Shown here in pieces: positions 51,030 through 51,470 of a DNA stretch of 64,000 bases (position 1 is its first letter; each line of letters starts with the position of its first letter). The DNA lies in assembly GCF_003334315.1 (NCBI RefSeq), contig NZ_QOWR01000001.1; one strand, 5' to 3'. Both the position numbers and the translations under genes were made by a program. Source of the stretch: Escherichia coli. Its GTDB lineage: Bacteria > Pseudomonadota > Gammaproteobacteria > Enterobacterales > Enterobacteriaceae. Under the pieces are notes generated by a model. It ran no database searches and was not told where the DNA came from. It worked only from the letters and a program-made list of their open reading frames with translations.

Positions 51030-51470
51030 ATGAAACGACTTCTGATTCTTACGGCACTCCTGCCGTTTGTCGGCTTTGCACAGCCCATTAATACTCTGAA
51101 CAACCCTAACCAGCCGGGGTATCAGATACCCAGCCAGCAGCGGATGCAAACCCAGATGCAGACTCAGCAAATCCAGCAAAAAGGGATGCTGAATCAGCAA
51201 CTGAAAACGCAAACTCAGTTGCAACAGCAGCATTTAGAAAACCAGATAAACAATAATTCTCAGCGGGTGTTGCAGTCACAGCCGGGGGAGCGAAATCCCG
51301 CCCGGCAGCAAATGCTGCCCAACACCAACGGCGGGATGTTAAACAGCAACCGTAATCCGGATAGTTCGTTGAATCAGCAGCATATGCTGCCGGAGAGGAG
51401 AAACGGCGACATGCTGAATCAGCCCAGCACGCCGCAGCCTGACATTCCGTTGAAAACTATTGGGCCGTAA
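51030..51470 (+). CDS. yhhA: Secreted Gln/Asn-rich low-complexity protein YhhA
   Basis: 146-aa ORF with signal peptide [17 protein letters not shown] followed by Q/N-rich repeats. Confidence 0.85.

Follow-up and report, generated by a model that had tools for sequence, protein, structure and literature searches.

How can two convergent genes each finish their transcription when their coding sequences run into each other and leave no DNA in between? This question is raised by yhhA and ugpQ in a stretch of 64,000 nucleotides from Escherichia coli (assembly GCF_003334315.1, contig NZ_QOWR01000001.1), which is called the window here and whose numbering is used throughout. The original prediction, made from the sequence alone, gave the two genes a coding overlap of about 14 nt, likened it to the neighbouring rtcR/glpR pair and stated that no room is left for terminators. 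The features at the junction are as follows.

51030 to 51470, plus strand: yhhA coding sequence, 146 aa, stop TAA at 51468-51470 (open reading frame list, RefSeq, NCBIfam, Pfam).
52200 to 51457, minus strand: ugpQ coding sequence, 247 aa, stop TAG, written 'cta' at 51457-51459 (open reading frame list, RefSeq, PDB 2OTD, PRK09454).
51457 to 51470, both strands: shared 3' coding stretch, 14 nt, CTATTGGGCCGTAA.

The stretch CTATTGGGCCGTAA encodes the end of yhhA, TIGP*, and the end of ugpQ, FTAQ*, in each case the last four sense codons and the stop with the first codon being partial. The two genes are a convergent overlapping pair, as opposite-strand coding sequences with common 3' nucleotides. 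The gene names, the coordinates and the 14-nt overlap of the original prediction agree with the open reading frame list, the raw sequence and the RefSeq ends. The RefSeq annotation of MG1655 places yhhA at 3586943..3587383 and ugpQ at 3587370..3588113, with the same ends as in the window. Identical ends are recorded in RefSeq for the K-12 derivative JW5503, strain 203740, MG1655 and the most divergent E. coli alleles inspected, and the 14-nt overlap is unchanged in these divergent alleles. Strain 203740 is 100% identical to the window across a 1.5-kb stretch at yhhA/ugpQ. The window is chromosomal E. coli DNA. A 1.5-kb query for the locus had hits in 5425 of the 5426 complete genomes of the species, and the 50 nt at the junction gave a match in 5417 of these genomes and were identical in 4120. 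A revised stop for either gene, named in the original prediction as the result that would overturn it, is impossible. The 3' end of each gene is set by the first in-frame stop in the sequence, and both stops are unambiguous, conserved and at the same ends in all records inspected. The yhhA/ugpQ overlap is an ordinary, already annotated arrangement.

Lack of room for terminators is literally right, as intergenic DNA is absent, and functionally misleading, as terminators are embedded in the coding sequence of the partner, which is demonstrated for yhhA. The terminator of yhhA consists of two parts.

51518 to 51549, plus strand: stem-loop of the yhhA terminator, CCCCAGCGC...GCGCUGGGG, in ugpQ codons P218-G228, found by folding.
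51550 to 51555, plus strand: U-tract of the yhhA terminator, UUUAUU, antisense of the ugpQ codons K217 AAA and N216 AAT.

Both strands were folded. The hairpin at 51518-51549 has a GC-rich stem of 9-10 bp, with a dG of -24 kcal/mol (z -3.4) in the window and -25 kcal/mol in the K-12 allele. Together, hairpin and U-tract occupy the positions 48-85 nt past the yhhA stop and lie inside ugpQ codons 216-228. On the transcribed strand a GC-rich hairpin is placed directly before a U-rich tract, as expected of an intrinsic terminator. The original prediction proposed 3' end mapping as a check, and for yhhA such a map is already published. In the TRS 3'-end atlas (Nat Commun 2023, PMC10687069, Supplementary Data 2), yhhA has a 'Primary' terminus on the plus strand that spans 3587463-3587471 and peaks at 3587467, 'Primary' being used there for ends within 100 nt downstream of a stop codon. 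By MG1655 annotation and sequence (NC_000913.3), position 3587467 corresponds to window 51554, the fifth base of UUUAUU; the yhhA 3' end used here is this published peak position. In vivo, the yhhA RNA ends as ...GGGGUUUAU, inside the U-tract directly after the hairpin, a position typical of intrinsic termination. By these features, the element at which yhhA transcripts end is an intrinsic terminator, and it is contained in ugpQ codons 216-228. The resulting mRNA has a 3' UTR of 84 nt and is antisense to the last part of the ugpQ coding sequence over 98 nt.

A consensus promoter and terminator scan did not detect the yhhA terminator, whose loop is probably too large for the limit of the scan; its hits were confined to the ugpQ-sense hairpin and two unrelated sites. 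An Rfam scan of positions 50500-52500 gave no match at E<=1. In the Term-seq data of Adams et al. 2021 (PMC7815308), no 3' end is listed near the yhhA/ugpQ junction and the end at 51554 is not reported, probably because of low expression.

Some additional observations concern the two genes and the embedded element. Adams et al. 2021 list an ORF-internal 3' end of yhhA at window 51081 on the plus strand (MG1655 3586994), 51 nt downstream of the ATG. Their list contains two entries for this end and scores it as not dependent on Rho, and a small hairpin, ACGGCA-CUCC-UGCCGU (51051-51066), is present just upstream. This end falls in the signal-peptide codons of yhhA and could be a site of premature termination, a pause or a processing site. 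The UgpQ chain in PDB 2OTD has His at residue 220, not Arg (codon R220 is window 51541-51543). If the R220H difference reflects a codon change from CGC to CAC, one of the G-C pairs in the hairpin would change to G.U on the yhhA-sense strand and to a C.A mismatch on the ugpQ-sense strand. In E. coli HD12480 (locus L087, 1671-3675), ugpQ is interrupted at the embedded hairpin, 72 nt from the 3' end of the gene, by an IS3-family element, and yhhA of this strain carries an internal stop and has a pseudogene annotation. Genomic SELEX by Shimada et al. 2017 gave a peak of RpoF holoenzyme inside ugpQ at window ~51815 (MG1655 v2 3585866; the conversion is approximate).

Conservation of the embedded hairpin was analysed in 80 ugpQ loci from other Enterobacteriaceae species, collected in one scan of species-representative genomes, which with the window sequence make 81. 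A convergent yhhA orthologue is situated immediately downstream of ugpQ in 80 of the 80 species. For a null distribution, ugpQ residues 218-228 were recoded synonymously 500 times per species with the pooled ugpQ codon usage. Across the 81 sequences, whose species are not independent in this recoding or in the codon counts given below, the observed median hairpin dG is -20.6 kcal/mol against a null mean of -12.0 kcal/mol, a difference of about 8.6 kcal/mol, and 50 of the sequences fall in the lowest 5% of their own null (p<=0.05). The codons of the stem are strongly biased. P218 is CCC in 72 of 81 sequences while CCG dominates most other proline columns, R226 is CGC in 69 of 74 and is the most biased among 11 arginine columns, and Q219 is CAG in 68 of 74. 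K217, where present, is AAA in 35 of 35 cases, the sole lysine column of 10 without AAG, and on the opposite strand this AAA reads as the UUU of the U-tract. One Buttiauxella species has a compensatory change, R226 CGT with Q219 CAA, which replaces a G-C pair by A-U. P218 CCG and R226 CGT break the usual stem in Klebsiella michiganensis, K. oxytoca and K. grimontii, and an alternative shifted stem, CGCAGC/GCUGCG, is present in this group directly before the same U-tract.

The hairpin in codons 218-228 may instead serve ugpQ itself, for example by affecting mRNA stability or by pacing translation close to the 3' end, or be a by-product of conserved amino acids and GC-rich codon bias, its use as yhhA terminator in E. 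coli being incidental. We consider this improbable. It would agree with the equally good fold on the ugpQ-sense strand (-25.4 kcal/mol) and with the core stem, in which six of nine pairs involve only first or second codon positions. Similar synonymous conservation is also found elsewhere in ugpQ, as P218 ranks 11th and R226 8th of 115 degenerate columns, which is strong, not unique. In lineages with R, Q or N at residue 217 the hairpin is kept although the yhhA-sense U-tract is weak, so it may have another or an additional role. However, synonymous recodings that keep both protein sequence and codon usage reach only about -12 kcal/mol, compared with the -20.6 kcal/mol observed. The invariant AAA of K217 is relevant only to the U-tract of the opposite strand, and the mapped yhhA 3' end lies exactly in this tract. 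Moreover, the K. oxytoca group has lost both CCC and CGC and yet re-forms a stem beside the same tract. At the level of sequence comparison, these patterns show the element as a yhhA terminator that appears to be kept in ugpQ by selection at synonymous sites.

The stops themselves behave differently from this element. Stop-to-stop distances were taken from ORF-based calls, as tblastn-based stops gave spurious overlaps of -98 to -169 due to frame artefacts. The distribution in the 81 sequences is given below, negative values being overlaps.

-4: 36 of 81 sequences, the commonest state.
-20: 10 of 81 sequences.
-14: 7 of 81 sequences, in Escherichia and some Buttiauxella.
-17: 6 of 81 sequences.
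-11, -9 and -7: 4 of 81 sequences.
+5 to +96, a spacer: 18 of 81 sequences.

The genes overlap in 63 of the 81 sequences, and the distance ranges from -20 to +96. K. michiganensis, K. oxytoca and K. grimontii are among the species with a spacer of 16-23 nt between the stops. Both proteins are variable at their ends. The UgpQ tail after IGP(D/N)F is found as TAQ, QP, QPC, TAAG, SSAD, NSADY and other forms, and the C-terminal extension of YhhA past its DUF2756 domain differs in length and sequence. YhhA is 92 to about 164 aa long across the loci, and the proteins of Kluyvera and Klebsiella (~106 aa) stop about at the end of DUF2756. Escherichia albertii YhhA has a 24-aa internal deletion, and one call of 196 aa (L077) probably has a mis-set start. 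As the exact overlap is not conserved and both C-termini are variable, the 14 nt look like neutral drift of the stops. From these comparisons, the tight convergent packing of yhhA and ugpQ is ancient, and the 14-nt overlap itself is most likely a product of neutral stop-codon drift.

On the other strand, two hairpins inside yhhA are candidates for the end of the ugp operon.

51402 to 51439, minus strand: candidate terminator or 3'-end hairpin of ugpQ and the ugp operon, in yhhA codons N125-P137, from folding and recoding.
51296 to 51336, minus strand: second, weaker candidate hairpin in ugpQ sense, ending 161 nt past the ugpQ stop, with the tail UUUCGCUC.

The hairpin at 51439-51402 has a dG of -21.6 kcal/mol (z -3.1), compared with -16.1 kcal/mol for the plus strand, and contains four G.U pairs. 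Counted from the ugpQ stop, it extends from 18 to 55 nt downstream, and it is followed by UCUCCUC (51401-51395), a weak U-tract. Among 300 synonymous recodings of the E. coli yhhA, none was as stable. Conservation of this hairpin is limited to Escherichia, the Citrobacter freundii group and Kosakonia, and in the C. freundii group it is followed by a better tail, CUUUUUCUCC. The hairpin at 51296-51336 folds with a dG of -23.9 kcal/mol but a z of only -1.7. With a C/G ratio of about 1 or lower, the RNA past ugpQ is not enriched in C, and for this reason Rho-dependent termination of ugp is not favoured. The ugp operon is part of the Pho regulon, with little or no expression in standard media. Neither Adams 2021 (35872xx-35875xx), nor a search of the TERMITe supplement, nor the TRS matches listed gave a mapped 3' end for ugpQ. 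Folding and recoding suggest that the ugp operon probably ends at hairpin 51439-51402 inside yhhA. The ugpQ-sense form of the hairpin in ugpQ codons 218-228 is followed by CGUGGAUU. It should not stop ugp transcription, since it is without a U-tract on that strand and lies in translated RNA, and for the same reasons ugpQ would tolerate the terminator embedded in it.

With the yhhA 3' end at 51554 lying past the end of the ugpQ coding sequence at 51457, the two transcripts overlap on opposite strands, with 98 nt of the yhhA RNA antisense to that coding sequence, as expected of an excludon. The yhhA-ugpQ pair is among the 165 convergent excludons of MG1655 in ExcludonFinder (NAR 2025, PMC12288877), which lists pairs with overlapping transcripts in at least 50% of 58 RNA-seq sets and uses coverage overlap as its only criterion. 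Predicted terminators overlap in 146 of these 165 pairs (PMC12288877). It is conceivable that the tight layout was selected for interference between RpoS-linked yhhA and Pho/cAMP-controlled ugp, with RNA polymerase collision and RNase III cleavage of a ~150-bp duplex leading to mutually exclusive expression. Besides the listing of the pair and the frequency of overlapping terminators, such a function would fit the convergent adjacency found in every one of the 80 species, the antisense overlap that the embedded terminator guarantees, and an RpoS-holoenzyme site seen by genomic SELEX in the ggt/yhhA spacer. Nevertheless, it is a doubtful reading. Coverage overlap is the whole basis of the listing, and validation by p19 dsRNA failed for convergent excludons generally. 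In arrays of E. coli O157:H7, yhhA and ugpQ/C/E belong to one expression cluster and are all induced as the cells enter stationary phase, and this co-induction disfavours simple mutual exclusion at bulk level. The length of the overlap also drifts freely, and a spacer is found in the 18 sequences listed above.

An annotation artefact, with yhhA being no real gene or one stop being wrong so that no true coding overlap exists, is hardly credible: YhhA is an uncharacterised, Gln-rich, low-complexity protein in which Pfam DUF2756 (PF10956) spans only residues 1-105 before a variable C-terminal extension, but its ORF with a signal-peptide-like N-terminus is convergent to ugpQ in all 80 species, it matches NCBIfam PRK10350 (equivalog) over its full length with 265 bits against a cut-off of 136, its C-terminal PLKTIGP is common to Escherichia, Citrobacter, Buttiauxella and Cedecea, it has a discrete mapped primary 3' end and is induced in stationary phase, and the stops are read straight from sequence conserved in thousands of genomes. 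By the conserved ORF, the family match, the mapped end and the fixed stops, this reading is effectively refuted. UgpQ matches NCBIfam PRK09454 above its cut-off and is a glycerophosphodiester phosphodiesterase encoded by the last gene of the ugpBAECQ cluster; the structure of its 247-aa chain is solved (PDB 2OTD). Both yhhA and ugpQ are genuine protein-coding genes.

The arrangement is also common in its surroundings. The window contains nine convergent pairs, with stop-to-stop distances of 28, 110, 42, -19 (rtcR/glpR), 614, 56, 37, -14 (yhhA/ugpQ) and 199 nt, for which annotated gene ends were mapped directly onto the window and small indels relative to strain 203740 shift coordinates by 1-2 nt. 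Two of the nine pairs overlap and the other gaps are 28-614 nt, which makes the yhhA/ugpQ overlap ordinary for this genome region. The likeness to rtcR/glpR drawn in the original prediction is a fair one, the overlap there being 19 nt. In that pair rtcR (plus strand) ends at 24731 and glpR (minus strand) at 24713, so that positions 24713-24731 are common to both. A simple scan of the rtcR/glpR junction gave no hairpin with a U-tract nearby except a weak 5-bp site at 24544-24530 on the minus strand. The rtcR/glpR pair is absent from the ExcludonFinder list. Same-strand stop/start overlaps of 4 nt are present between the ugpC stop and the ugpQ start (52197-52200) and also in glgX/glgB, livM/livH and ugpE/ugpA. 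Overlaps of this kind are usually tied to translational coupling.

As a whole, the locus is quite probably explained by genuine, tightly packed convergent genes with a neutral overlap, the signal that ends each transcription unit being located in the partner gene. According to this explanation, yhhA and ugpQ would have been packed until no intergenic DNA was left, and drift of the stop codons in two poorly constrained C-termini would have produced the 14-nt overlap. Transcription would need no spacer, because each unit ends within its partner. Transcription of yhhA would read 84 nt past the stop and end at the hairpin 51518-51549 with UUUAUU, antisense of ugpQ codons 216-228, and that of the ugp operon would end most probably at the hairpin 51439-51402 in yhhA. 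If ugp does end there, the yhhA and ugp mRNAs, when made together, would necessarily have about 153 nt of complementary sequence (51402-51554), and this complementarity would account for the presence of the pair in the published excludon list.

Standard annotation already contains the overlap, a published atlas the yhhA 3' end and an excludon catalogue the pair, so the matter is known and has little importance beyond bookkeeping. A general point is that a coding overlap of convergent genes does not imply missing terminators. The locus offers a clean and well-conserved case of an intrinsic terminator on the antisense strand of an enzyme coding sequence with a visible constraint on synonymous codons. 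It may serve as a test case for two questions, how strongly such embedded signals limit the evolution of coding sequences and whether any regulation arises from convergent overlaps. More would follow if ugpQ codons 216-228 were a true dual-coding segment, at once part of the enzyme and a yhhA terminator held by synonymous-site selection across Enterobacteriaceae, and if in addition the obligatory ~150-bp overlap linked the regulation of the stationary-phase (RpoS-linked) secreted YhhA with that of the phosphate-starvation ugp operon; we regard this combination as a long shot. The synonymous-codon footprint of the antisense terminator in ugpQ is the only residue of interest, and mildly so.

Compared with known systems, the yhhA terminator resembles canonical Rho-independent terminators in its GC-rich stem of 9-10 bp, the U-rich tract directly after it and the mapped 3' end in this tract. 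It differs from them in that its U-tract is short and interrupted (UUUAUU) and that it is dual-coded with UgpQ residues N216-G228 on the other strand. It is also not bidirectional, as the ugpQ-sense side is without a U-tract. Like other convergent excludons and overlapping 3' UTRs (PMC12288877), where the pair is listed, the locus has one terminator inside the other transcription unit, which results in overlapping transcripts. Unlike them, the yhhA terminator is inside the partner coding sequence and not merely in its 3' UTR, and the O157:H7 arrays show co-induction. From the convergent overlapping genes of bacteria, in which opposite-strand coding sequences likewise have in common a short 3' stretch with both stops and of evolutionarily labile length, yhhA/ugpQ does not differ in any substantive way; its 14 nt are longer than the minimal 4-nt YTAR overlap and shorter than the 19 nt of rtcR/glpR.
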